From: Marsupella aquatica
Taxonomy: Eukaryota; Plantae; Marchantiophyta
Reading direction: 5' to 3'
Assembly (NCBI GenBank): GCA_973895155.1
Contig: OZ316893.1
Span: 23,582,015 to 23,646,014, forward strand
Length of the DNA stretch: 64,000 bases
Numbering within the stretch: position 1 is the stretch's first letter; the number at the start of each line of letters is the position of its first letter. Positions 12,301 through 56,009 of the stretch are shown here, piece by piece. The notes beneath the pieces were generated by a model that did no database searches, was not told where the DNA came from, and was given only the letters and a program-made list of their open reading frames with translations. A program made the translations under genes and the position numbers.

Positions 12301-12453
12301 TTCCTCAGTTGATGCATCTGTACGGGATTTATACTCTTTATTCGGGTCCTCCAACTTCTCTCATAGCAGTGTTCTCTGCGTTTGTTTCACATGTCAACCG
12401 TTTGAGGATTCTGTAACTGGAAGCTCTCGCGAGGGATCTGTCCGTGACTTGGA

Positions 12454-15620: not shown

Positions 15621-15698
15621 TCCTGTGGGTGGCCCATGTCGTGTTGTACACCCACCGTGTTGTTTAGACCTAACTATGCCTGTACCTCATATTGCAGG

Positions 15699-30505: not shown

Positions 30506-33500
30506 TGTCGCGTCCCTAACCTGGGCCTTAAATCCAGTTTAGTGCCATGGCGCGACCTCGACCACCAGTAGGGGTGAGGGTTCGGGCAAGGAGGTGTGTA
30601 GTGGCCCTGATTAGCCCTAAGTCGGGCTAAGCCGATATACTTACTGGTATAACACTTAAGCAATTCGTACTAGTCATAGGTATCTTTTATTTTCCACCGC
30701 TGGAATCCTCCCTCAGTTAGTGACTCGGACTAACTCCCGGCTTGGGGCTTTTCAAGCCATCGACGCGACAGAACCTTGTGACATACAATGGGTGGCAATC
30801 CCTATCATTAGTCCGCACCCGGTACATCCCTTAAAATGGTGCCTTTGCCCAAACAAAGCATACTCACAACTCCAGTTACTTGCGGAAACATTAGAGGGAA
30901 AAGACTACATTTACTCAGCGAAGCATCAGTTTACATGGTTGACTCGACTTCAAAGGGGGTCAGTAGGCCCAACGGCAGTCGATGCCCAGTCTCTACGAGG
31001 CCCCGCCTCGCACTTGCCCAGCAAGCTCGACTCTGGCTCTCACTCCTTGGTGCGCTCTGACCCTGCTCAGGCCGGGACTCCCCGTGCCTCACCTTTCTTC
31101 TGCTGAGATAACTAAGCCTTCTCCCCCTTCCATAGCGGAAGGGGAAGCCTAAATACTACAGTTTGCAGAAGAGAACCGGAGGATACTACCTTCCGGGATA
31201 CTACCTACTGACTAACTACCTTCTGACTACTGGCCATGCCGCACTGACTGGTTGACCGTCGACGACAAGGGTGCCGACCGGGATGGCAGTGGCCAAGCCT
31301 ACTGACAAAAATCTAGTCCGTTGATGGACTCCATCCTACGTTGGTTGATCCTAATTGATCCGGCCCTAATTCTTCCTACTGCCGCTAATCGGCGCCTAAT
31401 GACAGCCATTCTGTCGTTATACCTAACCGAAAGATGCCGCTGACTTAACTGCCTCGCGCGGTGCCTGCTTCCACCCTTCGCTAACCACCCCTTACGTGTG
31501 TGCTGTGGTTGGACCAAGGCTGGTCCCCTTGTCAGGGCGACACCTCAAGCCGCCTTGATCAGAGGTGGGCCCAGGTTTTCCCCGCTAGAGGACGAGCAGG
31601 GTAACGTGGTCCTGCAAGGCCTTGTTGTCCCGCACCGCCTCCTCCGCCTCATTTGCAGCTTCATCGGCCTCGGTCTGGAGCCGCGCTACCTCCAGGTTGA
31701 GCTGGTTAATGGAGTCGCGATGGATTTGGTCCTGCGCCAGCAATTTATCCCATTCGGCGGAGAGACTAGCTACCTGCTGTGCTGCCTGCAGGAATTGTTT
31801 ATTAAGGTCGGTCAGGTTGGTAACCCGAGCCGAAGATTCTGAACGTAATTGAAGCACGGTGTCGTCCAGCTTCTTGAGATCTGCTTGCACTCCGCTTAAC
31901 TCGTGGGTTAGTCCGTCCCTCTGTTCGACGGTGCGGACTAACTCCTCGCGGCGGGTAGTGGCCTCCTCCTCGAGGTGCTCTACCAGCATCTGGAGGCGGC
32001 CGATTTCATTCCCCTTCGCCATGAGTTCTTCTTCCAAGCGGCTTACGATCCGTGGTTGGTGCTCTAACATGAAGAAGGCTGGTTGAAAGTACGCCAAGAC
32101 TTGTTGTCCGATGTACGTTGCCAGCTCCCCAGACATAGTCTGGCTAAACTTCTGGACCAGGTCGTAGGCCATGGTCCTCGGGGCTACTTGGTAGTCCTCC
32201 ATCCTCTCGGGTACCGGTGGTTCCTCGGGCGGGGCAACGAGCTCCTCCGTAGTCTGTGCTGGGGAGGGGAAGGTTTCTTCAGGTTGTGGAGGGATTGGGG
32301 GTGGTTGTACTACGGGTAGCGAAGGCTCGACGGAAGGGGGCAGCGGAATTTCCACAAGAGGAGGTGGCGGAGTATTAGTCGGGGCTTCCGGCTCGGGGTT
32401 TGCCCGAGGGACGGTAGTCCGCGCTCTCGGGGTATCCTCCTCTGGGGCGGGGGTGACATTAGTCGGGGCTGAGGTGGCCATATTCTTTCCTCTGGCCTCC
32501 TGCCGTGCCTTGTACCAGGCGAGGATAATGGCGATATGACTTCCCAAGTAAGTCTTCCCCCCAATAGCCATACCACCCTGAGCCCGCTTCAGCTCCCCCG
32601 AGAATCTTTGGTAGAAGAATTGGGCCCAGTTCCGCCGTTTGTACTGTTCCACCTGCACGATTGTGTAGAGGGAAATCTCGGATCGTGGCTCAATCATGTG
32701 TAGGGTAGTCCGTATGAAGTTAAGATGCTCCATGCAGATTAAGTTGGTGCACGACCCCTGCTTGTATCCGTTGTCCGTCTTACCCTCGGGTTTGAAATGC
32801 CGCGGTGTATACTCCTTATCCCGAATTCAAAGTTCAACCGGCACTGGCCCGGTTGGCAAGCAGAAGATTTGCGTTAACCGATGCTCCGTGAGGGATAAGG
32901 CCTGCCCCAAAACCTTGGTGGTCGATGCGTCAGTGTCGAAATTGGAGATGAACTCACAAATCTCCTTCGGCCCAGCGGCGCATGGCCTCCATAGCAAGTG
33001 AGCGAACTGCTCCAACTGATGCTCCTTGAGATAGTCTGCATGCTTGAGTTTCTTGATCGCGATCCAGACTACTTCGGGGATGTGGATTACCTGTAATAAG
33101 TTGGACTTCGGGTTATCCGGGGGCCGTCAGGTCTGGTTGGCCGGGGGGTTTGCCGGGGTAGATGCAGGCGCGGCATTGGTTTGCGTTGTTGATTCGGAGG
33201 CCATCGTCATCCTTGGTCGCTTACGAGAATGTTGTTCGAGTTGCGGACTAACTCGCTCGGAACCCAAAGAACACTCTGTGTTGATCACTGGACGGACTTG
33301 GGACCGGTTCGGCGGTACGCCGGTGGTCATCGGCTGAGGCACTGGTGGTATCGGGGTAGCCATATCCCAATTGAAGGCATTGGAGCTTTCCCCGAGGAAC
33401 GTAAGATTACGCGCCGCTTCCCGTTGTCTGCTGATGTCTTCTTGACGCTTTTCGGCTGCGATCTGCTGGTCTAGGTACCCCGGAATCTTATCAAACTCCG

Positions 33501-34360
33501 CTTGAGTAAGCCGCTGGCTACCCTTCAGCTTAAAGAACTTCCCTGGGACTTCAAGAATCGCCTCTGCTACCGATCTAAGCCCTTCCTCGCTGAGATATAG
33601 TTCGGTGATGTAGTCTCGCAGCTCGTTGTAGCTGGAATCCCTGGTGATGGCTGTCCTTTCGCAATTAACCAGTGCTACCTTGGTCACCAACTTCACGTAT
33701 CTTCGTTCGTAAGCGGCTTTCTCGGGACAAGAGTACCAGTAAGTCTTGGAGAACTTAGCACCTACCTCGCCAAACAAGGTCCAGAATCCCAAGGCTGTAA
33801 GGGTCATACTAACCTCGTAGTCCGGTTCGTTGAGTCCACGTTCCCACCCGGCTGGTCCTTTTGCTCATGGAGGCCTTGCTCGTCCTGACTAAATCTCGCC
33901 ACATTCCGCTCTTATCCCTTGATAATCTCCTTGTAAAGGTCGACTTGATTTGATCAGAAAGGTGAGTGGATGGCAACGTCCGCAAATTCCAAAAAGGTGG
34001 AATTGAGCAAATGGCCCGCAGCACCATCGGCTCCTCTCTTATGGAGGTGCCAGGGTGAGCCCGAGCGTGAGAAGGCCAGGCTGTTTTGGTCATTGATAAT
34101 GAGCTGAAGTCAGCGCCTCGGTCCAAGCGTGATTCTTCTAACTGATTTTTACTCCGCTGCCACCACCGTACCTCGGTCGCGCGTAATAATCCTCTTCCTA
34201 AACTTGTAATCATTCGGTCATCTTAACCTACTCCTAATCTATTCACAATGGCAACAGACGGCTATACGTGCTATTCTACGCTACGGCTACGGTTCTAACA
34301 TCCGTATAAGACCTAATCTACGACCTGGGTTCGGTTAAGTGACACGTTACCCGTGTCACA
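30506..34360 (-). mobile_element. 3855-bp TGT...ACA element (solo-LTR-like) with an internal gene
   Basis: Begins TGTCG, ends GTGTCACA; 5-bp TSD TTTGT (30501-30505, 34361-34365); no internal direct repeat and no gag/pol motifs seen. Confidence 0.88.
31585..33807 (-). pseudogene. Single 741-codon frame: N-terminal domain, plant-mobile-domain-like region, Pro-rich linker, coiled coil
   Basis: ORFs 33127-33807, 32827-33015 and 31585-32733 are in one frame, separated only by two TGA codons; homologous to 52334-54987. Confidence 0.85.
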
Positions 34361-34994
34361 TTTGTGCACAAGAGTGAGTTCATTCCAAGTAGTATAGTGG
34401 GGTCTTCATCACTCATTTCCAGTTGACATGAAAGACTTGTACATACCCCACAAAGTGTCTACTTTAGTCGTTTTATAAACCCACAAAGTATACTTAAAGA
34501 CTACCCTTCATAACCTTTTGAGTCGTTCCCAATGACTCACCATCGCAGCCCATAAAAGACTGAAAAAGACTCACCAAACCTACCCACACAAAGACTACAA
34601 TAGACTGAAAATCCAGTCTATAAAATGACTTATAAACCAGTTCTATAAAGGACTCAGTTGATCATAGTAACAAAACATACGACTCATAGTCCTATAAAGG
34701 ACTGGAGTCCTTCCCAGTCGTTTCCAAGTCCTATACGGTACTGAATAGTCCTTTAATGGGGTCTAAATACCCCCCGGTTTCTACTAGTGAATGCATGTAG
34801 GCCGAGCGGGCGGTTTGTTTGAAGCCAGTAGAGGAAATTTTACCCAAGTCGTTGGTGATTGAATCCAACCAACATCCATTTTCAATCCGCAGCAGTCCTG
34901 AGGTAATAATGTAGGTGTTGGCCCGATATGCTTGCTTATACTTTGAGTTTGCACCACAACTTTCCTCTGTACTAGCGTATTTTTGAATGCCGTC

Positions 34995-37600
34995 ATGGAT
35001 GCCTCAACTGATAATCCAGAAGCTCCTAGAACTTCTACTCTTGAGCTAGGAGAAATGGAAATAGTTACAGTCCCAGACCCTGTTCTCCCTCGTAGCAGCA
35101 GAGTCCGGTCCACTAGCAAACCAACCACGTATGTCTCCCAAGCTACAGATCGTGCTTCTCCCGACTCTCCAGCTCTTGTAGAGAGTATCAAAACTGCAAA
35201 ACCAAAGACTAAGGTGGAGCCGCCTCTAGAGCCATGGGATCCTAAAGATTATGTGAAGGACGCAGAGTATTTCCATGTCACATTTGGTCTTCCAAATGAA
35301 GGTGTTAATCCTCATAAGATCAAAGACATTTCCAAGGAGCAATTGGCCGAAGTGTTTGGAGAGAAAGACAGGAATGGGTATAAGTTGAGTCTCTGTGTGG
35401 GCCTCCCAATTGAGGAGGTTTTGCAGCTATCCCAAGTCGTGGATGGTTACGATGCACCAGTGAATGGATTCTTGTCTTTTCACTTTCATCAAAGGGGCAT
35501 ATGCAGAAAGGATCCAAAGGCGAAAGGTGGACTGGTGTGTGTATGCGGTGTCGAAGCTGAAGGGGCAAATTGCCCAATGGGAGCGAGATGGCAAGGGTAA
35601 GCCAGATGGGCCTCCTTGCATTAGGAGGTTGCGTCTGTATTTGCCACCAGTGCCTCAGGAATTTAGTGAAGATACTCAGAATCGGGTTAGGAAAAAGATT
35701 TGTATCAAGCATCAAGCGCCAGGGGACAAAGCTCATCCAGGGACAGCCAATTTAGGAGCGGATTTTGGTAGCAAGGGAAGCGCACACGAGAGCGCACATC
35801 CCAAACCATTGGAGGCTGCCCTTTCTGCCCCCGCAACAACGCTTCTCCCTGCCAAGCCTATTTCTCCTGTTGTCCCTATAGTGCCAAGAAGTCTTTTGCT
35901 TGCTATTCTGGATGGGCAAATAGTCACGATCAAATGCAGTCTTAGAGACACCCATGAGAGCATCAGTAAGGTTCAGAAGACTGTGCAAGACTTGGAGGCA
36001 GCAAATGAGGATCATCCAAAACTCAGCTCTGGTCTGGTGGACCAACTTCAGAAACTACAGCAAGAATTGCAAGATGTGAGAATCAAAGTGAAGGCCGCAG
36101 ACACCTTGTATGATGACATGTCAACGGAAATAGAGCTTGAGGAGCTCAAGGGAGAGCAAGATGAGGAGGTACAATGTCAGACCTGTCCCTGTGTCCATCA
36201 AACTATCTGTAGGCTGGATATATATGTTTAGTTGAGATGTTGGATTCAATTTAGCAGGACAAGGCATTGATGCATTGACGACGAGCTGCAAATAATGTTG
36301 TCGTGTGCATATCTTTGTTGGGGTGGGCAGGAAAGCTATGTTGTTATCCTGCAACAAAAGTTGGAGGAGGGTAACAAGGCCATGGAGGCTTTGAAGGAAT
36401 CTGAGTCATTTATCCTAAAGGGGATGGCTACATTTGAGAAGCTCATTGAGACCAGGAAGAAGCGCTTTGAACAGTTACCACACAAGGTGGCTTGTTTGAA
36501 AGTTGTGGAATCACAGTTGGAAGGACATGTGAAGCGTTTGGAGTTGGCTGCAGCAGCTCAAAAGGCTGAATTGTCCATTTTGGAGCCTGTGTTGTCCAAT
36601 CCATGTCCAGCATTGCAGCCTCAATTTGTTCCCACATCAACTGCGATAGTGGGAACTGAAGTGTTTGTGAGTAATTGTCCAGTTTGTTGCCACGGGTATC
36701 ATTGTTTCAATTGGGTTCCAGCAAGTTGTGGCCACGCCTATCATCCGCATTGTTTTTTTACCTTGTTGGGGGATAAAACAAGGACAAGTTGTTGCTTTGC
36801 TTGTGGGGAACCCTTTTGTGAAGATTGGATTCGAAGTTGGGGTCTTCCAAAGAGAGCGGTAGACAAGCTGCCGTCAGGTGAAGGCTCCTATATTCAGGAT
36901 TTGAAGGCAACATATGGGGCTAACAGTGCCCAATTGGGCACATGTCATCACCTTTTGCAACAGATGCAGTCCACGCAAGCAATGGTATGTGTATAACCAG
37001 ACTAGGCTTGCAGGTCATGTTTAGGTAGTTGGACAGTTTGAGTTTTTAGTTGGGCCATTAAGTGAATGTCGTCATTGTGTGTGCAGGAACAAGCCGAGGT
37101 CCAAGCAACTGTGTTGTTGAACAATGTGGACCACACTAGTGTGGTGCATGAACAGGGTGCCCCTATGGATGAGTCTCCTGAAATGCCAGTGTTCAATTCC
37201 ACAGTAGCCATCGGACTGCATGTGAGGAAGAAACAGAAGCAGGAGAGTGAAGTAGCTAGCAAGGTGACCAGTACCCCATTGACATCTCTTGAGCTTGGCA
37301 CCTTGCCCTTCACTCCTGAGTCTCTCTCTCATGTTTCATTCAGGCAACTGTTGAGCCTTGTTCAAACTGAAGCAGGAGAAACATCTCCTCCACAGTCCAG
37401 GAGTGCAATCCAATCCCAAGTTGTTCCTCCCAAGTCATCAAACTCCAGGAAAAGATTGCAACTTCTTGTGAGAGACCCGTAGCAAAAGGAAGAAGGTTTT
37501 TCTCTGGGTGCTGTAAACTGAATAATATAGAAAATCGTTTTATGTGCAGCAAACTAAATCAGGGCGGAAAACAAGAGCCACTACTGTGAACTAGTTGTAG
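34995..37600 (+). pseudogene. Multi-exon gene: plant-mobile-domain-like region, coiled coil and RING-H2 finger
   Basis: NGYKLSLC..KGAYAERIQRRKVDWC with a frameshift near 35480; coiled coil; RING CPVC-x-CGHAYHPHC-x-CFAC in 36295-36996; GT-AG introns. End approximate. Confidence 0.65.
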
Positions 37601-37694
37601 AGATCAAGCAGGTAACTATGGGTTTCCTACCTTGTGATGTTCTTTTGTCCTTTATTTGTTTGCCTTTGGTTGTCATTATGGTTTGTCACACTAG

Positions 37695-38300
37695 CAGGAC
37701 TCGGACAACAAGGGCCAAGGAGTTCAAGTCCTTCTTAAGGACTTTCAGTTCTTTCTTGAGCACTTAAAGTCCTTCATAAGCACTTGAAGTCCTTATTGGA
37801 GTCGTGGGGCAAGGACTGGGAGTCCTTCGGCCATGACTAGGACTTGGAGTCCTTGGGCAGAGTCCTTGGGAAAGGACTAGTAGTCATTGGGCAAGGACCC
37901 CGAGTCCTTGGGAAAGGACACGGAGTCCTTGGGCAGAGTCCTTGGGAAAGGACTAGTAGTCATTGGGCAAGGACCCCGAGTCCTTGGGAAAGGACATGGA
38001 GTCCTTGGGGGAAAGGACACAGAGTCCTTGGGAAAGGACACGGAGTCCTTGGGGGAAAGGACACGGAGTCCTTGGGCAAGGAGAGGGAGTCCTTGGGCAA
38101 GGACCCGGAGTCCTTGGGAGTCCTTCGGAGTCCTTGGGGAAGGACCCCGAGTCCTTGGGGAAGGACAGGAGTCCTTGGGCAAGGACACTTAGTCCATCGA
38201 CAAGAACACTGAGTCCTTGGCTAAGTCCTTCGATAAGGACTCTAAGGATTTACCAAGGACTTGGAGTGAGGAAGGACTTGAAGTCCTTGGGAAATCCTTG
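37695..38300. repeat. Minisatellite of ~21-bp quasi-palindromic units GAGTCCTTGGGnAAGGAC
   Basis: About 20 successive GTCCTT...AAGGAC units. Confidence 0.92.
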
Positions 38301-38402
38301 CAAAAGTCTGTCGAGTGAGAAAGTGCAAGAGTCTTTGGTTAGTTTGTTTGATTCAAATTGTTGAATTCTTGATTTTGAGAATGAGGTGCTTCAGTTTTGC
38401 AG

Positions 38403-38982
38403 ATGGAGAAGCTTAGCGTATATGATACTCTCCATGAGGTCAGGATTGATCAGATATGGGGTCTATGTGCTGGAGCCTTTACTTATGAAGGCTGTGGGGG
38501 AGTTTTGAGTGACGGCCGTCCCTGCACCTTGGGAAAGCACAAACGGAGGTTGAGAATGCAGAATCCTGAGTCACCCTTAGGTCCTCGATCACGCAACAGA
38601 CTCCAGCACTCTTGTTCTAGGGATGGGGAAGGAACATATATGTATTGTTTTGCTGTGCAGGTTGGCGATGTGGTGCTTCAAGTGAATGAAGCTAATGGTC
38701 TGCAGTTGATGGGATCTCGGGCCAGGACTATAGGGATTCTGATGATGAGAGGAGAGATGAGATCAGGGATCAGGTTTTGGCAAGGACTTGGATCATCAGG
38801 TATGTCAAGGGTGACAAGGGAGGAGATCTGCCTTGAGCATTGTACTTTGAAGAAATCAAAGTCGAGGCTCCAGCAGACGAGTCGTCTGTGGCCGAAGTTG
38901 GCCTTAGCAAGCTTAAGAATATTGTTGCTGACCTAGGGTCAGACATACTGGAGACATTCAGGTCTTTTAGCATCAAAAAGTA
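38403..38982 (+). pseudogene. RPA1 C-terminal-like Zn-OB-fold fragment
   Basis: FTYEGC..C.LGK..EC..YMYCFAVQVGD..GLQLMG..DY..W spacing resembles Rep_fac-A_C; frameshifts present. Confidence 0.5.
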
Positions 38983-41900
38983 GGCAGTCAAACTATACAA
39001 GAGGAAGGGTTTCGGATGGCTGGGTTAAATCATCTGGTTTTGGATGATACTTTGTTAGGGATTGAGGCCTTGTGAGCCTCATTTTCATTGTAAGACTTTT
39101 TCTTACCAACTATGTATTCATCTCAGAATTTGGTGCCTGGTTACAATTTACAGAGTTTGAAGAAAACCGCACATGTTATTCATGCCCACATTCATGTCTA
39201 TTTTAATTGAGTGGTTTGGTCACAAAAGCTCCATACATTTCGTCTTTTGTTTCCACTAGGATCCTGTCTACGTGTGGGTGCTGCAAATTCCTTGCGGGAT
39301 AATGTCTGGCTTCAACATGGGACACTTCTCCAGACCCGCTTTACTTTGAACTATTGGCAAAGTGCATTATTATGGTTTATATGATTTTTTTCTATTGTTC
39401 TTTAGTCATGGCGAGCAACAGAACCATGCGGGTGTCCCCAACGTGATCAAAATTATTGCCCCGCCGGTGAAATATTGAATATGTAATATTGAGTACATGC
39501 GAAAATGATAATTTAACTCTCTCAATTGAGAGACAAAGTGCCTCAAAACCAATAAAACTCCCATTGGGATAGATATTCAATATTGTCCTAGTAAAGCCCC
39601 TTCAGGGTCGGACGAGTAGAATGGGAAACCATGGAAAGAACCTGAAGACATCAAGTATTTAGGCGACAAGGAATCTGTTCATGGATATGGATGGATTTAG
39701 GGTTTGTGCTATGTAAGCACTTTTCTGCAATTTTATTGAGGCACTTTAGCTACTCAGAAAAAGTCTTAAAAATTGTTAGCATAGATATTGTAGATAGTAG
39801 AAGCCATGGCTTAAGATTCACCACTTTTGGAGTTTAGGATTAGAAGTGAAAAATAGTCAAAGATGATAGATTTGTATGTTTTGTCAAAAAAGTATAATGA
39901 CACTTAGTCATTCCGACACTTTTGAGGGACACTACCATTACAGCAGTACTTACACAATGTTACTGGTTCTGCCTGACGGGTTGTGACCAACCATTGTTGA
40001 TGCAAAAATGAAATGAAGGTGAAAAATAAGTCAATGCGCGCCTTACATTAAATCTCTGAACAATTTTACAGTTCCATAAAAACCAGCCTCACCTACGAGA
40101 CAGAATTCTTGGAAATCTTCATGTAAGACAAAACTAGCCTCACCTACGAGACTGAAACTTTGGATATCCTCATCACACACATCCAGAACCTACACCTGCA
40201 GCGAGTCTTACAGAACCTACACCTGCAGCAAGTCATAAATGGCTTCTATAGTGTCTGAGTCTAGTGTGTAAAATCTAGCACCTCGTCCCTTGCCTCCCTT
40301 GGGCACGTCACATGGTGTCAAACCAAATCGAATGTGAATGACTTCCCCTGGGTGGCAGTAGCTGAAAGGAGAAGCAGAATTGAAGACAAACTTATTTTCA
40401 GATCCTGGATATGGTTGGAACCACCTCCCCTCTAAGGCCATGTCCCTTGCCTTGAATTGTACCTGGTACCCATCAGCAAAACTCTTTGTGACTGTGTGGA
40501 GCACCTCTTTGCACTGATAAATGTAGAAATCTACATTATCTTGATTCGGTTGACAAGCACGACATGCATAGAAATCTCCCAATTGGACACATTCTGGCAG
40601 AGAGATGTTGTCAAGCAATCCTTCACCCTCTCCGATGTTCTGTACATTAGGTCTGACATCTGCCTGCAATACCCCTTTGACCATCTCTAGGCGATACTTG
40701 CCCACCCATTCCTTGTTCTCACAATTCATTGGATCATCATCAACACAAGCTACACAAAAACAACTGAGCTCTCGAACTTGCAACAATGTTGACAAACTCT
40801 TACTAAATCCATCAAAGCAGTGCAAAGATCTACAATCCTTGATTGGATCACAATCCCACTTCTTCCTTCTGTTTACAGTGCCAACTGGAATTTCCCAAAA
40901 AACACGTCGAACGAGTTGCACATCACCATACTCTTGCAATTGACCAACGGCAAACTTGTCTTTGCAAAACTTCACCACATCTGATGCACCCTCCAGACAA
41001 TGACCATTGATGCCTTTCAGTTGCTCAGTTGCAAGCCCGGTCTTGATGTGACCTCCGAGAGCATCCTATTACAGCATACCAGAAACACAAATTAGAAGTC
41101 TCTTCGGTGTGCAAGTCTGGACATCCAACTCCATTAATTAGAAACTTACTACACTTCAGTTGAAAGGCGGGTATTCATAGAATTGGTTGCAAAGTGTGTT
41201 CAAAAGATACTCACGTACAGCAACACCCTTCCCATGGCCAGAGGCATGGAAGAACCATTTCATCCGTGCACCAAACCTCGAGTAGTACCTACTGACGTAA
41301 TAAAACGGTCTGCAGGCCTTGAACTGAGAGGCAGCCCCATCAGACCAAACCCAATGTTGATCAACATGAATGCCCTGATCAGCCATCCACTCCCAATGTG
41401 CATCCATGCAATGTTGCACAAAAAGAGTGTCATGACAGTTATCGTCATTAATGTAGAAATGGTAATCGGCTATAATATCACGAGTCCTATCAGCATTTTG
41501 TGCTGCTTGCACAGGCCTACCCACTGCAGCTTCAAGTGAATCGGCATCTTCCCTATGTCTATAGGTAACATGGATTAACAATGTCACTTGCTTATTGTCC
41601 CAATGTTGACTCTGAATCTCATTTTGAGGCAAAAAAGTGTAATTTTCTGAAAAATCTATTGAAGAAACAATTGTCCCTCTTGGAAATGTTTTGAGACATT
41701 GTCTAAATTGTTGCGACTGCCAATGTGCTCGAAAGTTATGCACAATAAATGTTTTCATGGTATCCAACACCGCCCTCTTCAAATCTACCATGGGAGTTTT
41801 CTTATAAACCATCCTCAATCGCCTAGCCTTCTTTGTTGCGCTCTCTTCAGACCCTTTCTTTTTCTCTCTCTTTTGTTGGGCAGTGTCATCCAGGTCATGA

Positions 41901-42459
41901 TATTCAAACGACTGCCAATCGATCATTTGTTTCTGTGCAGGGTCCAACTCCTGAGTGCACCAATCCAACTTCTCTACTCCACATTTGTCACATTCACCTA
42001 TAATACAGGCTTTTGGTGCCACTCGTTCTCAGGCAATCTAGGACAAAGAGCTTCCTCTATCCAGCCACGAACTGAGGTTATGGACTTTGTAGATGCCATA
42101 CAAGAAGAAATGGGTACAACACCTAAGGGTCTACAGATATCACATTCACAAGGACAGTCCTTATTGTGCTGGTGCCACCTAAATTTGTTAATTGCCTCTT
42201 TCAGTAAGTCCATCTCCACATGTTGTTTGCAGCAACAAACATTTCGGTCCTTCATCTTGCGAACATAATATGGCTTGAAGTGTATGAATGACCGCATCCC
42301 TACAGACACCCCATTCTGCTCCCTTGTGCACCAGTCACGAAATGCTGAATAGAATTGATACTGTAAACATACAGGAGAGTTTTATTAGAAATACTATAGC
42401 AAATAGACACCCTCAAATGTGCAGCCATAAAAATCCCTAGATATCTGGGTACTACTTAC

Positions 42460-43620: not shown

Positions 43621-44590
43621 TATATAGGACGTCAGGTCTCACAAAATTATTCAGATCCTACCTTAAAGAAAAAACTAGGCGGTTACAGCAGAGCACAATG
43701 GCTAAAGCACACATGAAGGAAAACTACTTCTCAACATCTGCAGATCGTATTATGAGTTAAAACAAAAGTGGCAAATCAATCATGGAGAATTTCTCACCTG
43801 CCTCCAGCCAGTGCACTTGATGTGTTTCATACATTTTTCGCCCTAGTCGCAATCTGGCTTCATTGTTCTTACATGGAGAAATCCGAGTGTGGGTTTCCCA
43901 AAAGTGTTCCACCTGTTTTCGAACTTCATCAGAAATCTTATCTCGACGTACCTTTCTTTCCCCCATAGGATAAGTTTTTTCACGATCTTCATCAATCTGC
44001 ATCCTGATCTTAGATGCCCTATGAAGATTTTGCCGTTGTATACCCAAAGCTTGAGCTAGAGAGGTCTGCTGCCTTCTATCTACACATGTCTTTCCTACAA
44101 GTGCTGACAAAACTTGGTACTTTGCAACAAGATGGTCTTTGCGCTTCCCTTGCTTCACTATGCTCAAGGTTTTCCTCACATCACATAATGCAGCAGCTAC
44201 AGCCCAATCCATTTTAGGCGAACCTAGTCTTGTAGGCTGGTACTTCTTCAAGTATTTGTGCAACCAGATACCAGATAGTACTGCCCTCCTTGCACCTACA
44301 TTGAATGTAGCGGTCTTCTCCAAAATGTACCTAACTATATCTGATAACACAATTGTAATGCACCTTCTCTTTTGGTTGGGAGTTACACCGTCTTCTGGAA
44401 CAGAGCGCTTGCTCCTTTGGTACTCAAATCTCTTCCTGTCTGCATCCTTCCTCCTCTTCTCAAGAATGGAACCTTCCTGCAATTGGTCATCACAACCACA
44501 ATTATCGTGCTCACCTTCATTTAGTGGATGAAGGTGGGCTGCATGCACTTGAGTGCAAGCAGTTTTGGTGCTCTGCCTTGGCATTCGAAT

Positions 44591-45879
44591 CCCTGGGCCC
44601 TCATCGTTACTAATGCAGGGAGGACGTGCAAACAACGCAAGGGTATTTTTAATGTAATGCAAACTAATTTTTATAATATTTTTTAAAGTAGGCAACATCC
44701 ATGTATATGCATTCATCACAATATTAGTAATAAGGCTCTTATCAAATACATGTCACATTAATCTTATGCAAGGGTACCTAAAATGCCAAGGACACGTGTC
44801 ACTATATGGTTGGCACACATGTCATCACTTCATTGGCACACATGTCCATATAGTAAATCAGACATTTACTTATTTATCCTCTTAAGGCAAGTTTGGTTTC
44901 ATGGGCTTGCATGGTAGACTTGTTTACCCGCATGTGTTAAGTTGGGAGTTAAGTAAATGTTGGGCCAGGATTTTGGGGCCCAACTCGTTTGGGGTTCTGG
45001 GATTGATGGGGACCCATGAATCAATCCCACATAGACAAACAAGATTACTTTTGAATTCCCTCGAATCAAATGGCCAGGTATGAGGCCAGGTGTGTTTGTG
45101 TGTGGGGTGGTGTACTCCCTTGATGATTGGGTTGGGGGGGTACCCGGTGCTCACAGTTGTTTGATTGCAGAGATGGCAGGAAAATTACCCACCATGTCTA
45201 AGTAACAATTTCAGCCAAAGGAGATTTGATGGTATTACTCTCCACAATTTTCAGTAGTTATTTTTTGTATTATTAGTACTTTGTGTCTAGAATATATATG
45301 ATTCATGTGTGGTTTGATGTGTCAAGTTGCATGAAGAAGTTGCCAAAAACTCTACTTATCATTTGGTGTTAATGGTTGATGTCATACCATTCTTAGTCAA
45401 GATAGAATAATTTAGCAATTGGAGTTGACATAAGTAATATATATGCAATTATTCCTCCAAGGATATAGCATAGCATAATAATGCCTTTGTACTAGTTCAG
45501 TTTATCTCTATGAGGTCTACAAGTTGCCTGAGTTATAGTCATATACTCTAGGAAGAACTATAAATCTTTAGTACTAATTTTGTTATGATCTATATAAAAT
45601 ATGTACCGTGAACATCAGCGTAACATAATATTCCCCTATGCAAAATAAAATCTTTTATGTTTCAGTATGATATTTACAATTTTAAAAATTCAAGGGTTTT
45701 TTTAATTCCTTGAAAAACTCTGTTATAATTTACAAAAGGATAAATTTTTATAGGAAAAAATAATGTTTTTACATTAACAAGGGATTTTTTTTTGTGAACA
45801 AAAATATTAAGAAGGGGTACACGGGGGGTGTCTGTTCTCAGGGGGGTTCACTTAATATAGTAAGAGTGAGGGCCCAGGG
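44591..45879 (-). mobile_element. Non-autonomous DNA transposon, 1289 bp, copy 2 (inverted relative to copy 1)
   Basis: Same 13-bp TIR; 8-bp TSD ATTCGAAT (44583-44590, 45880-45887); interrupts the Sola2-like ORF. Confidence 0.95.
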
Positions 45880-48399: not shown

Positions 48400-50925
48400 A
48401 TAGTCTTATCGTTGTCCTGCTGCACTAAAATGACAATGGGAGGAAACGAGAGTGGCACTGACAAGTAAACGAACAGTAAGAGTGTCACTGCCTAACTGAC
48501 TCAAGCACCGAAGAGAACCTTAGCTAAAACTCATTTAGCTACTCTGATGCATTGAACCTCTGCTGCCGATTCTCTCCCAGTATGAACTCCAGATTTTGTT
48601 CCATGTTATCTTTTTTCCCGGTTGCACAGCCATACATGATGTCCCTGATCATCACTTGTTTTTTGTTCTGCACAAAACATGCAACATGCCTACAGTTAGA
48701 GACCACATATATGGAATTCGTAATTCATCATTACTAGTGAGTGCGTGCAGGAATTGTTAGGCAAAGCACGCAAACTGAAATACCTCAATCATACCCCAAT
48801 AATATCCTAATAATATCCCAATAATACCCCATACACAGAGTGACTGTATTCACCATGCAGTCCACACAAGCACTTCTAATCTTACTTGCAGCTCCAACAT
48901 CTTCAACTCAATTGAATCTTCAGCGATAAACCTGATGACTTTCACCGGCCTTGTTTGCCCAATACGATGTGACCGATCGACGGCCTGGTCCTCTACCGTG
49001 GGATTCCACCACCCGTCTACCATAAGAACATGTGTAGCCTCAGTGATGTTGAGTCCTGTGTTCGTTGCCATCAAGGACAAGAGGATAATGCTGATCTGCA
49101 TGAAATGAGTAGAAACAGTTTAATTAGAATATAAAGAGTTTACCCTTTGAACAATACAGACACCGATCTGCACGGATAATGACGGTTGTACCTCTGGGGT
49201 CGTCTTGAAATCATTCAAGGCTTGTTCTCTGACATTGGAATTCATTCCTCCATCAATCCTTGTGAACTTTAGACCAGCCTTCAGAATGTGTGGCTCAAGC
49301 ATGTCGAGACACAAAGTCCATTGTGAGAAAACAAGAGCCTTCTGCCTGGGCACAAAGCTTTCGCTGCTACCCTATCCTGTAGTGTCCAACGGAATCGACT
49401 TCAGGTATTCCAAGACTGCATCAAATTTTGGAGAAGGTGGGTGTCGGACATCATATTCTCTTTGCGCCTTCCCTTTTGACTCCGCACCACCATTCACTAG
49501 CCTCAAATCAGCTGGCCTGTATAGGACCTGGGCTGTCACGTATTTTGAACATTTTGCCGATTTGCAGGTTCCAGCTTCCCGGTCTATTGCACAAATGCCA
49601 CAGTATACATGGCCACAGCCAGAAATCTGAAATGGACTTCCAATCAAGCCCCCTGCACAATCCAACCGTTAAAGTGAGTGCGTGCAAAAATTGTTAGGCA
49701 AAGCACGTTAACTGAAATACCTCAATCATACCCCATACACAGAGTGACTGTACTCACCTTGCAGTCCACGCAAGCACTTCCAATCTTCAATTGCTGAAAC
49801 TCTGACACGAGTCGGCCTCGTTGAGGCTCACTAAGGGGCGTTCTTTGCACTTTGTTCCCGATCTCCTCTTCGCGAATTTTACATAAGGAAGGAAGTTTCG
49901 GGTGCACTGCAAATTGTCGCAACTGGAGCAGAACACTCAACACATTCGATAAGGCACCTCTTTCGGCGTCGCGGAATTCCTACAACATTACAGGCACATT
50001 AATTGCCACCAAAAAGACACCTTCAAGGGATCAAATTGAACTCTCATACGTCTTCAACATTGGGGATTATTAAGAGCCTTATGTACCTTGTATAAGTCCT
50101 TACTCTTTTCCTCCTGATCAAAATAAGCCTTTTGTTCTTGCTGTGTTCTCCATTCAACAATTTGCACCTCGATCGTCTTAGGGGGCAGTGGGAGTATGCC
50201 TGCATGTAAGCACAGTGGTAGGGTAAATGCACAATTGATAAAGAAATCAGGCATGGGATTAAACAAAGTGAACTCTACCATGATGCATGTGCGCTTACTT
50301 TTGTCTCTCCTGAGCGCAATCACAACCAAGTGTTTCGAGAGGATGCCATTCGTTATCTTTGGCCTTGTCTTCAACAGCTTCTTTAACTGCGAGAATTCCT
50401 TCCACTCTCCTAGAGGATAATACCTCAGAAAACTGAAGTAAGGAAACAGATCAGAAGCCTCGTTCTGTATGGGTGTACCGCTTAGGCACCACCTCCTCTC
50501 TGCCTTGAGACAACACGAGGCCTTGAAATTTTGACTAGTTTTATTTTTCATGACATGACACTCATCCAGGACTACTCTAAGCCAATTAATCTTAAACAAT
50601 GGACCTGCAAGTCTAGGTTTTTTACAGGTCTCTTCATACTCCCTTTTGGCACGCTGGACGTCTTTGGAGCAATGGGTGACTCCCCTATCATGATTGAGTA
50701 CGTAGTGACAACCACGTCATGGGCATGAAATAAAGTCGATGTCTTTATTCCTCTTGTTGTGGTAGAGGAGGACCTTCACTTTTGCTATCTTGGAGGTCCT
50801 TGCAGCTATTTCTTGGCCCCATTGAATCACCACGCTGGCTGGACAAACAACTAGAGTTGGCCCACACTTATGAGGGTGATTCACGAGAAATAGCGCTATG
50901 ACATGCATGGTTTTTCCCATTCCCT
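48400..50925 (-). pseudogene. RAD5/RAD16-like SNF2 ATPase with internal RING finger
   Basis: [93 protein letters not shown]. Frameshift near 50725, in-frame TAG at 49372; 3' end approximate. Confidence 0.9.
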
Positions 50926-52333
50926 ACAAAAATCCAAGCCAAGAAAACAGTCAGGCACCCACTCACTTGCAGACGGGGTATTTACAAACGACAGGAACCA
51001 GGAAACAGTAACAGCAAACAGTTACTGTTACCAGGAGAAATGGAAAAAAGAACATGGGATTGAGCTCCATTATTTGGTCAAGAAGTAAAAAAAAACCCAT
51101 CAATAAACCCCATTTTCAGTCGTTTTCAATACCACCATCCAATTGTCAAGGAAAGTAGGGGCCATTAGAATAAAGGTGTTGCCGAAAACCGGTGATGGCC
51201 AGCGCACAACGGTAGTATGTCGGCAGGGAAGGGCAAAATTTAGGTATTCATAAAATAATGAAAAAGATGGAGATTCTATGTAACGTCAATCGAGAAGAGA
51301 ACAGTAAACTTAACGACCAATAGAAAAAGGCGTTGCCAAAACATGCGGATATTAGCAGCGCCCAGCGCTAGTATGCTGGAAGAGATTGTCCATCACATCA
51401 ATCGAGAAGTGAACACAGGAAACTCAATTTGAAGCATGTCAAGTCGTAGGCTTCGGCCTTAACTCAGACTTCAGCTTAGACGGGCACATCCCTCGTAAAT
51501 TTGAGGGTTTGGGCAGGAAGGGAAGCACGTAATGCACCTTATTCTCGTAAACTAGCGCTAAGTGCGCATACTGCTAAATACGGACACCTCCTAGGTATGG
51601 TTTGTGTTCCACCGCCGGAATGTACCTTAGTCGATAGCAAGATCGACCCCTGCTTAAGGGCTTCTAAGCCTTCGTGCTGTCCGCCTTCGATCCGGATTCG
51701 ATGATACAGGTCCTCAACCCGTGCTCGCAACCACTTACCCGCAGGCTACACCCTGTGCACGTCTCGGGTAGTGCGTTCGGCCTGGCGCTGCCACCCATAT
51801 ACGAGAAACCCACACACATATGCGCACACATGCATACAATCTTGATTTACACGAAGGAAAATGATGGGAAAGGATTTTACTACAAAGGGAACATATGCGT
51901 ACACTTAGTTGACCCGATAGCCCTGGAATGAACAGGTTCAAGGCCGAGGGTGCACACTACAATGGAGCCCGGCTCCGCACTCGCCCGGCGAGCTTAGTCC
52001 TACCCCCTCCCCTTGGTACTCTGTCATTCCCAGAGGTCGGGACTCCCTGCATATCCCGCGGATGTCCGACTCTGAAACTAAAAACCCCCCCTGCCTCTAC
52101 CGAGGGGTGCACTAAATACTAAGAGCCGAGGGACGGGGTGTCATCTTGCCAAAGATTTGCTGACTAAGGTCCTAACTAAGCTGACAGTCAGGCCGGAAAA
52201 CGGCTGTGTCTTATTAGAAGATCCTAATCTACGTAGGCTGGACAGCAGGGCAGCGCTGCTGTACCTAAGGCAGGTGCCTGTCCCAAGAGCCTGACTAAGC
52301 CAATCCTAATCCTAATCTATTCCTACTCCGCCG

Positions 52334-54987
52334 CTAATGCCTGGCACGCTTGCCAGAGCCGCCCGAATGGGAACGGCCATCCCGCTGCCTTCGAAGCCTG
52401 TCATTGTCCGCTTTGAGGAGCTGGACCTCGTCCAGCAGAGATTCATTCTCTCGCCTCGCCACGTCCGTCTCCTCTGCTACCTCCTGACATGCCTCCTCCA
52501 GCTACTGGGCGTCGCTCGTCAGTTTACCCGCAAGCTGGTCCTGCTTCTCGGCCTCGGTTTGGAGCCGCGCTATCTCGGCCTGCAGCGTGGCTATCTCCGC
52601 CGTTTCCCGCTGGGCTCGCTCCTCGGCCTCCTCCAGGTCTTTCTGCCAGGTGACAGCTTGTTTCTTCAAACTATCAATCTGGTTCCGGAGTCGTGTAATC
52701 TCGGCCTCATTCCCAGCTTTGGCCTGTTCGGCTAGGGCGGTAAGAGCATGCGCCTTTGCTAACAACTCATCGGCGGCTGCAACCTTGGGTCGTAGTTGCA
52801 GAAGCTCAGCCTCTTGAGCCGCCACTTCGTTCTTTAGGTACACGGACTCCACCCGGTATCGCTCTATCCTCTGAAGGGTCTCCGACTGGGCCCGACCTGC
52901 CTTTACGGCAGCAACCAACTCCTGATTGAAGAAACAGGCTACCTTCCGGGCCATGAACTCCCCGGTATCCCGGGCAATTTGATGAGAGAAATCTCCCAGA
53001 AGCCCGTTCAGAAACGTACCCTATACGAAGAGTTCCGGGTGGTCCAAGTTGTGCCTATCCGGATTTGGGCACGGGCAGACGTCAACACGCGCAGGGGCCG
53101 GGGCAGTGACGTCCAGCCCTGGGGACATAACGTTGGAAGGGGCTGGAGTGTCCTCCTGTAGCAATGTCCGGTTCTACGGAATTGCCACCGGTGGGTCCTT
53201 GGGAGACCCGGGTTCGGGTAAGACCTCTGCCGTACCAACTTCTGTACTTAGCCCGGCTAGTTGGGTCGCATCAATGGTTGCGACAACCGACCCCTCCAGC
53301 GCCTCCTCGGTTACGATTACAGCTATTTGTGGAGGTGGGGTGGGTGAAGCTGGCGTATCCGCTGGACTTCGGGCCTCGGGTTGGGGCCGTCTCTCCAATG
53401 CCGGAAAACCCACCTAGCTGGGACCAGCTTTGTAACGTTGATGCGGGGAAGGGTTTGTCGATCAAACCGGGCGTACCACTCAAGAATGATTTTGATGTGG
53501 CTAGCAAAATACACCTTCCCGCCAATGTACAGCGTCTTCCTTCGCCGCTCCATCTCTTCATGGAATTTTTTAGCGAAGTACGACGCCCATTTCCTAGGTC
53601 GATAGTTCTCGACCTGGATAACCTGGGCGGCGGAGATCTCCCCCCGGGGTTCCATCATGTGGAGAGCGTACCTTTGGAACTCCAGCCGCTCAGCTATCTC
53701 GGGCATGAGGCAGGTCCTCATCACGAACCCGTTGTCTACTGCTCCCTCTAAGGGAAAACTTGAAGATTGGTACTTGGCCCCCTTGCCCCCGGGAGCCCGT
53801 GATTCGACTCGATGGTCACCTTCGGGTAACCCGAAGATCATCTTGAGTCGTTCTTCTGTGAGGGACATATTCCTTCCCCGCAGCCCAGTCTGTTGACGTA
53901 CGTCGTCATAATTCTTGACGAATTCTGTCATGTCCTCCCCGTAGTACCTGCAAGTGTTCCAGGGGAGAGAGGTGAGGTGCTCAAATCCCTGAGTCTTCAG
54001 GTACATCGCATGCTTGGGATGGAGGATGTTGCTGTGAACGTTTTCCCCCATGCGGTGCATCGTCACCTTGGCTACGGCTACCGTGGCCAACGGTAACCCG
54101 GATGCAGTGGCGGATTCCTTCCTCTTCTTTCCCCGTGACTGACTCGGGGAAGGTGATACTTCCCCATCCTCCTGATCGGGCCTGGGGAGTGCCACTGCCG
54201 TTGGTAACGGGCCCGGGGCGGCCACGGTCACCATGTTGTCTGCTGGGGCCGCTCCTGGGGTCAGAGCAGGGGGTGGGGACGATATAGTGTCGGCCCCCCG
54301 AGCGCTTGTTCCTCTGGGCCGCCTGGTCAAGGGTGGGGTAGCCTCGTCGTCATCACTAAGATCCACAGCGTTGATGACGGAGCGTACCTGTGCTGGCTGG
54401 GTGATAGGTGGTGGGGTTTGGCTAGGCTGCGGCTGAGGCTGAAGCTGAAGCTGAGCCTGAGGTTGAGGCTGGGGTTGCATGGGCACGGGTACGGGTACGG
54501 GCACGGCTGAGTTGGTCATGTTGGTTGATGGCCGAGTTCCCATGAAGCTCTGCAGGTGCTGGTAGAAGTTCTTCGAAGCGAGTGCGGACGCCCTTGTCGA
54601 ACGGTTGGTACTGGACTCGCCGTTAATGACAGCCCAAGCCTGGGCAGGGATGTGGTCGAAGTGATGTCGCTGCAGGTCAATTATACCCGGGATATGGAAG
54701 ACCTCGTCCGGAAGCCGAAGCAATGCTTCCTAGAAACCGATATATTTGTCTCCGTTGAAGAAGTACCCAGATACCTCTGCTGGTCGGTAAAGCTCACTCT
54801 GAGACGGGTAGTCAAAGTTAAGGATGTAGTGGTGTCGTCCTGCTAGGCGGATGGCTCTCTCGTATTCGCGTTCGATTTCGTATCGACGCGGGTTGGCGTG
54901 TTTCAATGAATCGGCCAAGTGCCTTCCGGTAGATAGGAACTGCATCCAGAATCGAATGGCCGAGCTGGAGAGGATCGTGTGCGACAT
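52334..54987 (-). pseudogene. ~880-codon gene homologous to 31585-33807
   Basis: ORF pieces linked by in-frame TAG stops and one frameshift near 53415; LHMMEPRGEIS..KWASYF..IGGKVYFASHIKIILEWY matches LHMIEPRSEIS..NWAQFF..IGGKTYLGSHIAIILAWY. Confidence 0.85.
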
Positions 54988-55085
54988 TCAGAGGAGATAG
55001 TAGTGGCGACCTAGAGAGAACGAGAGAGCTGGGGTCGAAGCTGGCGCGCGGACTGATGGACTGGTGCACTACAAAGGGTTGGCTC

Positions 55086-55095
55086 CCCTTTTATA
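55086..55095 (-). promoter_or_regulatory. TATA box (TATAAAAGGG) upstream of the element-internal gene
   Basis: CCCTTTTATA on the plus strand, about 100 bp before the ATG at 54987 and about 360 bp inside the element end. Confidence 0.55.
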
Positions 55096-56009
55096 CTTTG
55101 AGGGCTTGTCGATCCCCGACGTCTCCTCGACGCCCATAGGCTGAACCGCTCACGCTTGTGGTGTACCGACCACTCCGCCGGTCTGAGTCAGCATGCGTCA
55201 GTGGCCGCTTCCTTAAGTTCGTTATACGGACCCGAGGGAGGGGCCCTTCCACGCTCGTAACCCGGGTGTGCGAATAGTGACCCGCCGCCAGCCCGAACCT
55301 GAAGTCCCCCTTATTGCCTAATGATGTCCTACCCCTAATGATTACCTAAATACTGTCGTTATGCTAATAATAGCGGCCTAAGACATACCTAACGCGCGTG
55401 CCGAGCGCAGTTAGACTGAATCACTCATTAACCGCCGTACCGGCGGCGTCACAAAGCATTTCCAACAAACAGAGGCAATGGCAGACGTTGAATATTTTCA
55501 GCGATGGCCGCTACATTAAATGTCGGACCTCAAGAAATCAACGTCTAAACACGGAACACAATGATCATAGGCAGCGCTCGGCGCTAGCTCAAATCTAGGA
55601 ATCAATGAATGACCATGAAAGAACAAGAGAGTCGATCCAAAAGTGCATTCCTTAATTCCAAAATTGGTCAAAACATATAACTGGTATTACACCATCCGCA
55701 GATCATCTTCAAATCAACCCACGGCAAAACATGAACATAAGCAGCGCTCGGCGCTAGCTAAAATCTAGCTATCTTAAATGTAGCCCGCCCTGGCCCGTAT
55801 GTGCTTTATCTTGACCTGAGCCGCACATAACAGGGCCGCTGATCCAAAATGGGCCAAAGATGGAGCCGGAAATACATGAACTTAGAATCACCCATAGAAG
55901 AAATCCCATGGTCCAAGACGAACAAAAGCAGCGCTCGGCACTAGCTTAAATGGAAAGCCTATGGCCACTGAAGCTTGTGTCACTGAAACCATCTCCGTCG
56001 TGATTAACT

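Follow-up and report, generated by a model that had tools for sequence, protein, structure and literature searches.

VANC21 is encoded by VANDAL transposons, Mutator-like elements of Arabidopsis, and is represented by PDB entries 9LNJ and 9LNK. VANC proteins carry the domain DUF1985 and bind short motifs in the non-coding regions of their own elements, as part of one source describes (PMC5735166). In the relevant part of another they are called dicot-specific (PMC13547354), whereas the two units described here, E1 and E2, come from a liverwort. The core domain of the E2 protein has a predicted fold like that of VANC21, and there are further likenesses: the protein is element-encoded and combines a coiled coil with low-complexity regions that vary, and the non-coding DNA of the element is enriched in a short candidate motif. 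The differences are also considerable. The E2 core is only 8-9% identical to VANC21, the E1 and E2 proteins have an extra N-terminal domain, and any function shared with VANC21 would here be a prediction from models. VANC sits beside a transposase in its Mutator-like transposon, whereas E1 and E2 each hold a single gene between LTR-integrase-type ends with a 5-bp target-site duplication (TSD). The VANC target motif lies in tandem repeats, whereas the candidate in E1 and E2, CCTAAT, was selected post hoc and lies in loose clusters.

In retroviruses, MMTV sag and HIV nef are ORFs in or overlapping the LTR; both are short and are located in U3, so that the LTR promoter lies downstream of them. 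E1 and E2 are similar in carrying a protein-coding gene that would be duplicated along with the LTR, but their ORF is 2.2-2.6 kb long and lies downstream of a TATA-like box. Among Ty3/gypsy elements with extra ORFs, Ogre (PMD), Retand (Transposase_28), Athila (ORF-1) and the PMD-A clades share with E1 and E2 an accessory gene of the PMD/DUF1985 structural family, with a coiled coil, on a retroelement-type unit, and the Ogre, Retand and Athila lineages include very long LTRs. For plant non-chromovirus elements, the pertinent part of one source gives LTRs of up to about 5 kb, 4-5-bp TSDs, and PMD, Transposase_28 or Athila ORF-1 extra ORFs (PMC6317226). Rye has the Revolver element and barley the LARD LTRs of 5 kb; compared by description only, they are high-copy, transposase-less and of LTR-like size; Revolver has a single gene and raises the same question as E1 and E2, LTR or independent element. 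A review describes Revolver as an element with TIRs whose gene contains introns and an ORF of 139 aa, and the LARD LTRs as non-coding (PMC2851119), whereas E1 and E2 have coding capacity, no TIR and a colinear frame of 740-880 codons. With no TIR and such a frame, they are not members of Revolver.

Two units with integrase-type ends

The two units lie in a 64-kb window, the whole stretch of DNA that was analysed:

30506..34360, minus strand: E1 (element 1), 3855 bp, TGT...ACA ends, TSD TTTGT at 30501-30505 and 34361-34365
51437..55453, minus strand: E2 (element 2), 4017 bp, TGT...ACA ends, TSD AAGCA at 51432-51436 and 55454-55458

The boundaries read TTTGT/TGTCGCG...GTGTCACA/TTTGT for E1 and AAGCA/TGTCAAG...CGTCACA/AAGCA for E2. 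TGT...ACA ends with a 5-bp duplication at a spacing of 3.5-4.5 kb occur 15 times in the window, and the pattern alone is within chance. Read-contig depth and empty-site evidence concern E2 only. Summed contig depth (runs X1 and X2) was 88,000-488,000 in every bin wholly inside E2 and 900-20,000 in four bins of its flanks; E2 is a member of a highly repeated family, with depth steps at both ends. One X2 contig represents its empty site, joining 51431 to 55454 with a skip of 4022 bases (4017 + 5) and retaining a single AAGCA. No RNA run was among the 9 listed, which carries no information on expression. The TG...CA termini and 4-6-bp TSD from insertion that characterize a solo LTR are thus found here, in the ends themselves and in the E2 empty site, and integrase-type insertion of the units is supported. 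For E1, support comes from its left arm, which aligns in register with that of E2, and from an identical 21-mer shared by its flanks (30452-30472 and 34371-34391).

Comparison of the arms revealed no LTR pair or TIR within either unit: direct left-versus-right scores were 28 and 23 against null maxima of 42-43, and inverted scores were 24 and 26 against null maxima of 40 and 34. There was no Pfam match to gag, RT or integrase in 92 of the 104 window ORFs of at least 100 aa (the other 12 are alternative frames inside E1 and E2), none to a transposase in E1 or E2, and no Rfam match in the window. Like solo LTRs, the units therefore lack both gag/pol and a repeat pair inside. The original prediction had named both the TGT...ACA ends with 5-bp TSDs and the missing LTR pair and gag/pol, and both observations hold, the former strengthened for E2 by the depth steps and empty site. 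Ginger, a TIR DNA transposon, is the comparison for such ends; the absence of a TIR and of a transposase match counts against a DNA route, and a TIR DNA transposon is rejected on these grounds.

Four X5 contigs extending beyond 55453 agree with one another at 0.52, and four unrelated flanks would give a calculated 0.53, so these contigs show no shared internal region past the right end of E2. The E2 family contains internal deletions, with skips of 69-462 bases among the joints listed, and no common breakpoint inside the unit appears among the 15 of 30 joints listed. The E2 differences listed (40 of 816) are mostly private to the window copy and are uninformative on selection.

The encoded protein and its predicted fold

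Each unit is occupied mostly by one gene, with these parts:

31585..33807, minus strand: E1 gene, 740 codons, internal stops at codons 227 and 327, no frameshift
52334..54987, minus strand: E2 gene, about 880 codons, E1-like architecture, interrupted by a stop at codon 86, by a frameshift near 53404 and by three more stops 3'
33400..33807, minus strand: E1 N-terminal helical domain, about 135 aa, kept in full-length relatives, pLDDT 88.8
32488..33102, minus strand: E1 core domain, homologous to the E2 core (41% identity, 181 aa)
53404..54090, minus strand: E2 core domain, unbroken frame, predicted VANC21/DUF1985/PMD-like fold

The E1 gene encodes an N-terminal domain, a low-complexity linker, the core, a Pro-rich linker and a coiled coil. 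With two internal stops in E1, and four plus a frameshift in E2, these copies are broken and would no longer produce a whole protein. The proteins are nonetheless homologous (BLASTP, 140 of 516 positions identical, E 1e-42), and the N-terminal and core blocks named in the original prediction of one large gene per unit are present in both. E2 is also 33% identical over 556 columns to P0047, an uninterrupted relative of 906 aa. Codon positions 1, 2 and 3 are identical between E1 and E2 at 0.53, 0.59 and 0.38, and fourfold sites match in 5 of 24 cases, so selection on the protein is supported by the sequence comparison, as had been proposed from the persistence of the protein blocks.

Named relatives are confined to one liverwort, Calypogeia fissa. 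A word-based protein search with E1 gave 0 of 4554 candidates; a search among long proteins (1587-4530 aa) gave 0 of 3458, weak evidence against a fusion to pol. With a Calypogeia-type alignment, 4 of 7995 were retained, three of them named C. fissa. A contig scan gave one related 1097-bp metagenome contig (one of eight pattern matches), and viral contigs gave no relative (0 of 2 and 0 of 37). A distant subfamily in C. fissa has two copies that are nearly identical, separated by about ten gene models and in mirrored accession order; from the accession numbering, they would form an inverted rather than an LTR pair.

The AlphaFold model of the E2 core (pLDDT 90) has VANC21 bound to DNA (9lnj_A) as its top Foldseek match, with probability 0.97, TM 0.53 and an E-value of 0.039. 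VIA aligned 205 residues of the model to VANC21 at rmsd 4.1 and 8-9% identity with a Z of 8.5, which is close to the VIA caution level, and a fold alone demonstrates no function. VANC21 was the only chain with Z of at least 5 among 48,161; the next reached 2.4. For the core, the ESM Atlas listed DUF1985 at 0.90 and PMD at 0.89. A DUF1985-type DNA-binding fold of the VANC/PMD kind is therefore predicted for the core. Profile and sequence searches did not recover it: Pfam PMD, Transposase_28, Transposase_32 and ATHILA matched none of six element pieces at E 0.05 and did not match the E2 core at E 1, DUF1985 had no match to the element's own pieces either, and none of the four was among the 25 of 41 families listed for 23 aligned members. 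A BFVD fold search gave no match at E 0.001, and a PDB sequence search with the core alignment gave one match, at coiled-coil level. Kinship with the PMD family, which the original prediction had proposed to check, is thus supported by predicted fold and language-model features but not by Pfam. The E1 N-terminal domain had no fold match above background (best Z 5.6, rmsd 7.3).

Non-coding arms, putative promoter and candidate motif

Outside the gene, the following features were located:

30524..31158, no strand: conserved non-coding arm of E1, with 68% identity to E2 and two short hairpins retained in both, a putative R/U5-type cis region
51455..52121, no strand: E2 conserved non-coding arm, counterpart of the E1 left arm
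34029..34043, minus strand: E1 TATA-like box CATAAGAGAGGAGCC, at a distance of 318 bp from the right end
55081..55095, minus strand: E2 TATA box TATAAAAGGGGAGCC, at a distance of 359 bp from the right end; a pyrimidine-rich leader and then the ATG at 54987 come after it
31350..31426, plus strand: E1 CCTAA(T) cluster right after the stop codon, sites at 31350, 31365, 31395 and 31422
34197..34360, plus strand: E1 right-end CCTAA cluster and terminal hairpin, CCTAATCTA at 34233 and 34312
52171..52319, plus strand: E2 CCTAA cluster beyond the stop codon, CCTAATCTA at 52223 and 52311
55317..55453, plus strand: E2 right-end cluster of five CCTAA copies, and terminal hairpin

The left arms share about 650 bp, in register from offset 18 in both units, with identity at 401 of 587 alignment columns and a score of 130, where the null reached at most 41, whereas the right arms are unconserved (24, null maximum 32-33). 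The claim that the DNA is highly diverged therefore stands for the coding region and the right arm and fails for the left arm. When a portion of the conserved arm was folded as RNA from the two sequences, 14 of 51 pairs had double changes, but two sequences are too few for this to count. The TATA-like pattern, defined after inspecting both elements, lies at a similar offset in each unit and is accompanied downstream by AATAAA/AATAAG-type words, candidate polyadenylation signals.

CCTAAT is the top 6-mer of the non-coding DNA in both units, with five copies in each, on one strand, and all four window sites of CCTAATCTA fall inside E1 and E2. Resampling produced some 6-mer five times in both units in 4 of 2000 trials; CCTAAT was chosen post hoc, E1 and E2 are homologous and hence non-independent, and, taken singly, the two 6-mer counts are not significant once corrected. 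The CCTAAT(CTA) sites form loose clusters in both arms, unlike VANDAL-type tandem arrays. The right-end hairpins (z about -2.3) are modest evidence, because the left 50 nt of E1 folds equally well (z -2.2). Another word, CTAAATACT, has three sites in the units and one outside and resembles the VANC21 motif YAGTATTAY in reverse, a likeness that is probably due to chance.

Possible gene-bearing solo LTRs and other readings

We tentatively read each unit as a Ty3/gypsy-type solo LTR whose gene, through its predicted VANC/PMD-fold protein, supplies the element's own anti-silencing or activating factor, a reading to which we give nearly even weight. An integrase would have inserted a complete element bounded by two LTRs of 4 kb, which then recombined with each other so that a single LTR stayed behind. 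Such an LTR would read right to left: a short, fast-evolving U3 of about 350 bp, the promoter, the gene and a conserved R/U5-type arm. The protein may multimerize through its coiled coil and bind a short motif, with CCTAAT(CTA) as the candidate, in the non-coding arms, and in this way keep them free of silencing both in cis and in trans. In anatomy the units agree with a solo LTR, having a putative promoter near one end, conserved non-coding DNA at the opposite end and no repeat pair inside. A promoter 320-360 bp inside one end means that the unit's own transcript cannot rebuild that end unless an LTR pair exists, and its position near the right end thus counts for the unit existing as an LTR pair. 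U3 is usually the fastest-evolving part of an LTR, and a conserved left arm with an unconserved right arm agrees with a right-end U3. The original prediction of a gene inside a solo LTR is thereby carried partway, by the integrase-type insertion, selection on the protein, PMD-like kinship and solo-LTR-like anatomy. Counting against a solo LTR are the mirrored order in C. fissa and the unrelated X5 flanks, and neither a copy paired with another around gag-pol nor a PBS or PPT junction was observed; the Foldseek E-value of 0.039, the 8-9% identity and the lack of a Pfam match count against the VANC/PMD fold.

The protein of a gene-bearing solo LTR might instead serve in integration targeting, in regulating element transcription or splicing, or as a scaffold built from the coiled coil and N-terminal domain. 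The same fold occurs, according to parts of three sources, in host MAIN/MAIL proteins and in PMD/TRP28 extra ORFs without assigned function (PMC13547354, PMC5418596, PMC11963269), and the N-terminal domain has no fold match. We nevertheless regard such a role as unlikely, since the one structure solved with the core fold is that of an anti-silencing factor bound to DNA, and the non-coding arms are enriched in a short motif. Alternatively, the 4-kb unit could be the mobile element itself, LTR-less, TIR-less and Revolver-like, with integrase or transposase supplied in trans and only an accessory protein encoded. In its favor, each window copy stands as one unit, E2 has high depth throughout with a drop at either end, the four X5 contigs have unrelated flanks, both right ends have a hairpin and the C. 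fissa pair looks inverted; rye Revolver, too, is described as a unit with one gene and a high copy number, its ends being homologous to LARD LTRs (PMC2851119). Solo LTRs, however, yield the same depth profile and unrelated flanks, and the hairpins are weak, the E1 left end being equally foldable. We know of no plant mechanism by which TG...CA ends together with 5-bp TSDs arise when LTR pairs and TIRs are both absent, which counts against an independent element, and this explanation is likewise an unlikely one. Its specific form, an LTR-less, TIR-less cassette at very high copy in liverworts that borrows an integrase and whose sole gene is a VANC-fold anti-silencing factor binding CCTAAT(CTA) in its own arms, seems quite unlikely. 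The units might finally have arisen by deletion from an ordinary element whose LTRs are short and whose extra ORF is internal, with only the outer half of each LTR retained. Extra ORFs do normally lie in the internal region, in the portion of PMC6317226 concerned, and the family shows internal deletions. Yet the left and right arms of each unit are dissimilar, two families with saturated silent sites share the layout, and the joints listed have no common breakpoint, which makes such an origin very unlikely.

According to a 2010 review, no LTR that encodes a gene had ever been identified (PMC2851119), and we found no report of one in liverworts in the literature outside subscription journals. 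If the units are gene-bearing solo LTRs, a plant LTR can contain a complete gene of 2.2-2.6 kb, and solo-LTR formation, which normally disarms a retrotransposon, would leave a cassette of promoter, gene and target. With an anti-silencing gene inside the LTR, every solo LTR would become a stand-alone anti-silencing cassette for its family, a consequence we consider possible and, like the reading it follows from, not quite an even prospect. The VANC/PMD fold would also be placed on a retroelement-type unit in a non-vascular plant. Whether that fold arose in hosts, Gypsy elements or Mutators has been posed as a question, in a part of PMC5418596, and the liverwort units would bear on it. With a candidate target of 6-9 bp named, the role of the extra ORFs of plant retrotransposons becomes testable.

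Unit ends and membership of a repeat family

The two TGT...ACA units of the original prediction were found where it had placed them, element 1 (E1) at 30506-34360 with TTTGT on each side and element 2 (E2) at 51437-55453 with AAGCA on each side. The end pattern alone is little proof, because TGT...ACA with a 5-bp duplication occurs 15 times in the window at a spacing of 3.5-4.5 kb. For E2 only, we placed contigs of four public sequencing runs (four of the nine listed) on 51000-55900. Runs X1 and X2 yielded 7,964 and 12,442 placed contigs, and their summed contig depth, which the tool warns is not copy number, was 88,000-488,000 in every E2-internal bin versus 900-20,000 in flank bins. By this depth, E2 is a member of a highly repeated family and is bounded at 51437 and 55453. 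The family is thin in runs X5 (389 contigs) and X6 (65 contigs), which are labelled as other organisms. One contig of X2 passes straight from 51431 to 55454 and so omits exactly 4017 + 5 bases; it represents an empty site, probably in a paralogue of the flanking repeat. The ends of E1 draw independent support from an identical 21-mer on either side of it and from its left, low-coordinate arm, which can be aligned with the left arm of E2 starting at offset 18 of each unit (401 of 587 columns identical; score 130, null maximum 41).

Another X2 contig, of depth 198, joins 54741 to 51437, the inside of the E2 gene to the left terminus of E2, via 14 other letters, and possibly represents one copy of the family nested in another. 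The CpG observed/expected ratio is 0.83 in E1 and 0.85 in E2 versus 0.53 in the remainder of the window, which youth or shielding from methylation could explain. The window also contains the following features:

154-2346: exons encoding PSP and DUF382 domains, typical of splicing factor SF3B2; probably a host gene
10621-11916 and 44591-45879: inverted 1.3-kb copy pair, 97.8% identical, 33 kb apart
15762-29900: CACTA-type element, with Transposase_21, DUF4218 and DUF4216 ORFs at 23717-26984
15762-16457: second DUF4216, within the CACTA-type element
18561-19222: 189-bp tandem repeat in a Gly/Ser-rich frame, within the CACTA-type element
22645-23607: SET-domain ORF, within the CACTA-type element
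37800-38290: 21-bp array related to the 20-bp satellite at 42600-43500
40217-44752, minus strand: transposase-like ORFs with no Pfam match, presumably of a DNA transposase by the motifs DFSENY, WSDG and HGKG
42600-43500: 20-bp palindromic satellite amid these ORFs
50054-50716 and 57294-57956: SNF2-helicase fragment and a weak N6/N4 DNA methylase match, flanking E2 on either side
59538-59947: 71-bp tandem repeat, about five copies

The encoded protein and its core

Each unit carries one large homologous frame, as had been proposed; both lie on the minus strand, and their protein alignment is 27% identical (E 1e-42). Both genes are interrupted, that of E1 (740 codons) by two internal stops and that of E2 (about 880 codons) by four, together with a frameshift near 53404. 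The E2 breaks look private to the window copy, because most contigs differ from it at the first stop and many carry an insertion at the frameshift site. Between E1 and E2, the core (178 codons) is 42% identical in amino acids and 0.53, 0.59 and 0.38 identical at the three codon positions, with 5 of 24 fourfold sites matching; the N-domain (106 codons) is 24% identical, with 0.42, 0.53 and 0.26 by position and 3 of 12 fourfold sites matching. Silent sites are saturated and the protein is kept, and this comparison of sequences therefore indicates purifying selection on the protein since the E1 and E2 families split. The earlier claim that the DNA has diverged while protein blocks persist applies to the coding region and to the right arms, which are unalignable between the units apart from a TATA-like box, but not to the left 650 bases, which are 68% identical, far over the silent-site level.

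A HMMER search of cluster representatives with the core returned 43 relatives at E 0.001; among 20 relative proteins looked up, 11 were named as Calypogeia fissa and no second species was named. These names make a liverwort the probable host, with another bryophyte possible. The N-domain and core are common to the full-length relatives P0047 (906 aa), P0059 (787 aa) and P0050 (630 aa), and the match to P0047 extends to the coiled-coil part as well. P0050 and P0039, different subfamily members in C. fissa, lie on a single contig under accessions that differ by two (CAM6086213, CAM6086215), which suggests clustered or nested copies.

Pfam recognized only the coiled coil in pieces of the E1 and E2 genes and nothing meaningful in the core. 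The AlphaFold model of the unbroken E2 core (229 aa, 23-row alignment) reached pLDDT 90 and pTM 0.86, and its top Foldseek match in the PDB was VANC21, the anti-silencing protein of Arabidopsis VANDAL transposons, in complex with its target DNA (9lnj_A; probability 0.97, TM 0.53, E 0.039; runner-up probability 0.01). In an independent wide VIA search, VANC21 alone among 48,161 chains scored Z of at least 5 (runner-up 2.4), at Z 8.5 and rmsd 4.1 over 205 aligned residues and Z 8.3 on a second look. Identity is 8-9%, this Z is close to the level at which the tool advises caution, and a shared fold does not amount to a shared function. The ESM Atlas placed the core nearest unnamed Streptophyta clusters (0.92-0.93), then DUF1985 (0.90), then a PMD cluster (0.89) in which only 18% of members carry the family annotation. 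From these models, the core very probably has a VANC21/DUF1985/PMD-type fold; the suspected kinship to PMD-type proteins gains from the VANC21 and ESM Atlas matches and is left without backing by Pfam. The N-domain model reached pLDDT 88.8, and its fold searches gave no match above background.

To the right of E1, frameshifted ORFs at 34947-36996 show, by eye, a coiled coil as well as a Cys/His stretch resembling a ring finger. The core fold may also be carried by other elements, because 35085-35531 weakly resembles the core (hhalign probability 55; HMM iE 0.097).

Non-coding arms and a candidate motif

The TATA-like box lies on the minus strand, 359 (E2) and 318 (E1) bases from the right end, and is followed by GGAGCC in both, a pattern written after sight of both units. 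Two short hairpins are kept in the left arms of these two sequences. Among 6-mers of the non-coding DNA, CCTAAT ranks first in E1 and in E2, with five copies each on one strand only, in clusters at the right end and beyond the stop codon. All four sites of CCTAATCTA in the 64 kb fall inside E1 or E2, at non-orthologous places. Resampling gave any 6-mer five times in both units in 4 of 2000 trials, and we treat CCTAAT as a lead to a candidate motif because it was picked post hoc from related units, neither of which has a count that is significant by itself.

Identity of the unit and a proposed working

TG...CA ends with a 5-bp duplication mark the action of LTR integrase. With a putative promoter 350 bases inside one end, a unit's own RNA cannot restore that end unless the unit exists as a pair, and for transposition as DNA E1 and E2 contain neither TIRs nor a transposase; solo LTRs are therefore the simplest reading, and we consider it fairly probable. 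The expected lack of an LTR pair and of gag/pol was confirmed, with neither direct nor inverted similarity between the arms within E1 or within E2 and gag/pol absent from the window ORFs scanned (92 of 104). The putative LTR would run right to left, with a short variable U3, the promoter, the gene and a conserved R/U5-type arm; an opposite orientation, with the gene antisense as reported for Retand (PMC11963269), is possible. Plant non-chromovirus elements are described with LTRs reaching about 5 kb and with extra ORFs of the PMD type (PMC6317226), and a liverwort is reported to contain the Athila, Tekay, Phygy and Tat lineages (PMC12885004). Contig scans for relatives of the unit gave a single 1.1-kb contig. 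Four X5 contigs agree past 55453 at 0.52, no better than unrelated flanks, which leans against the solo-LTR model or lends it no help. The same applies to a pair of broken, nearly identical C. fissa copies from a distant subfamily, whose mirrored accession order (CAM6101869/870, 879/880) suggests an inverted pair if numbers follow position.

VANC proteins, of the DUF1985 type, are reported to bind a 9-base motif in non-coding parts of their own transposon (PMC5735166) and to share a fold with MAIN/PMD-C (PMC13547354; bioRxiv 10.1101/2024.09.27.615353), and PMD-A clades are described as Gypsy-encoded in angiosperms (PMC5418596). The E1/E2 product is predicted to work like such accessory factors, but is no VANC by membership, because its gene has no VANDAL host element. 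A 2010 review states that a gene-encoding LTR had yet to be identified and describes Revolver as a single-gene unit with ends related to LARD LTRs (PMC2851119). In our search of the openly accessible literature, no report described the liverwort family of E1 and E2 or an LTR that carries a gene of VANC fold.

The full proposal, that these are solo LTRs whose gene encodes a VANC/PMD-fold DNA-binding anti-silencing or activating factor, is tentative and in our estimate falls a little short of even. The LTR promoter would drive the accessory protein, which the coiled coil would multimerise, as is predicted for VANC and Athila proteins (PMC13547354), and the core would recognise a short motif in the arms of the element itself and fend off silencing. 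Translation of gag downstream of such a gene might depend on splicing or on a second start. Its location within the LTR would have the accessory gene doubled with each insertion and would let it outlast solo-LTR formation.
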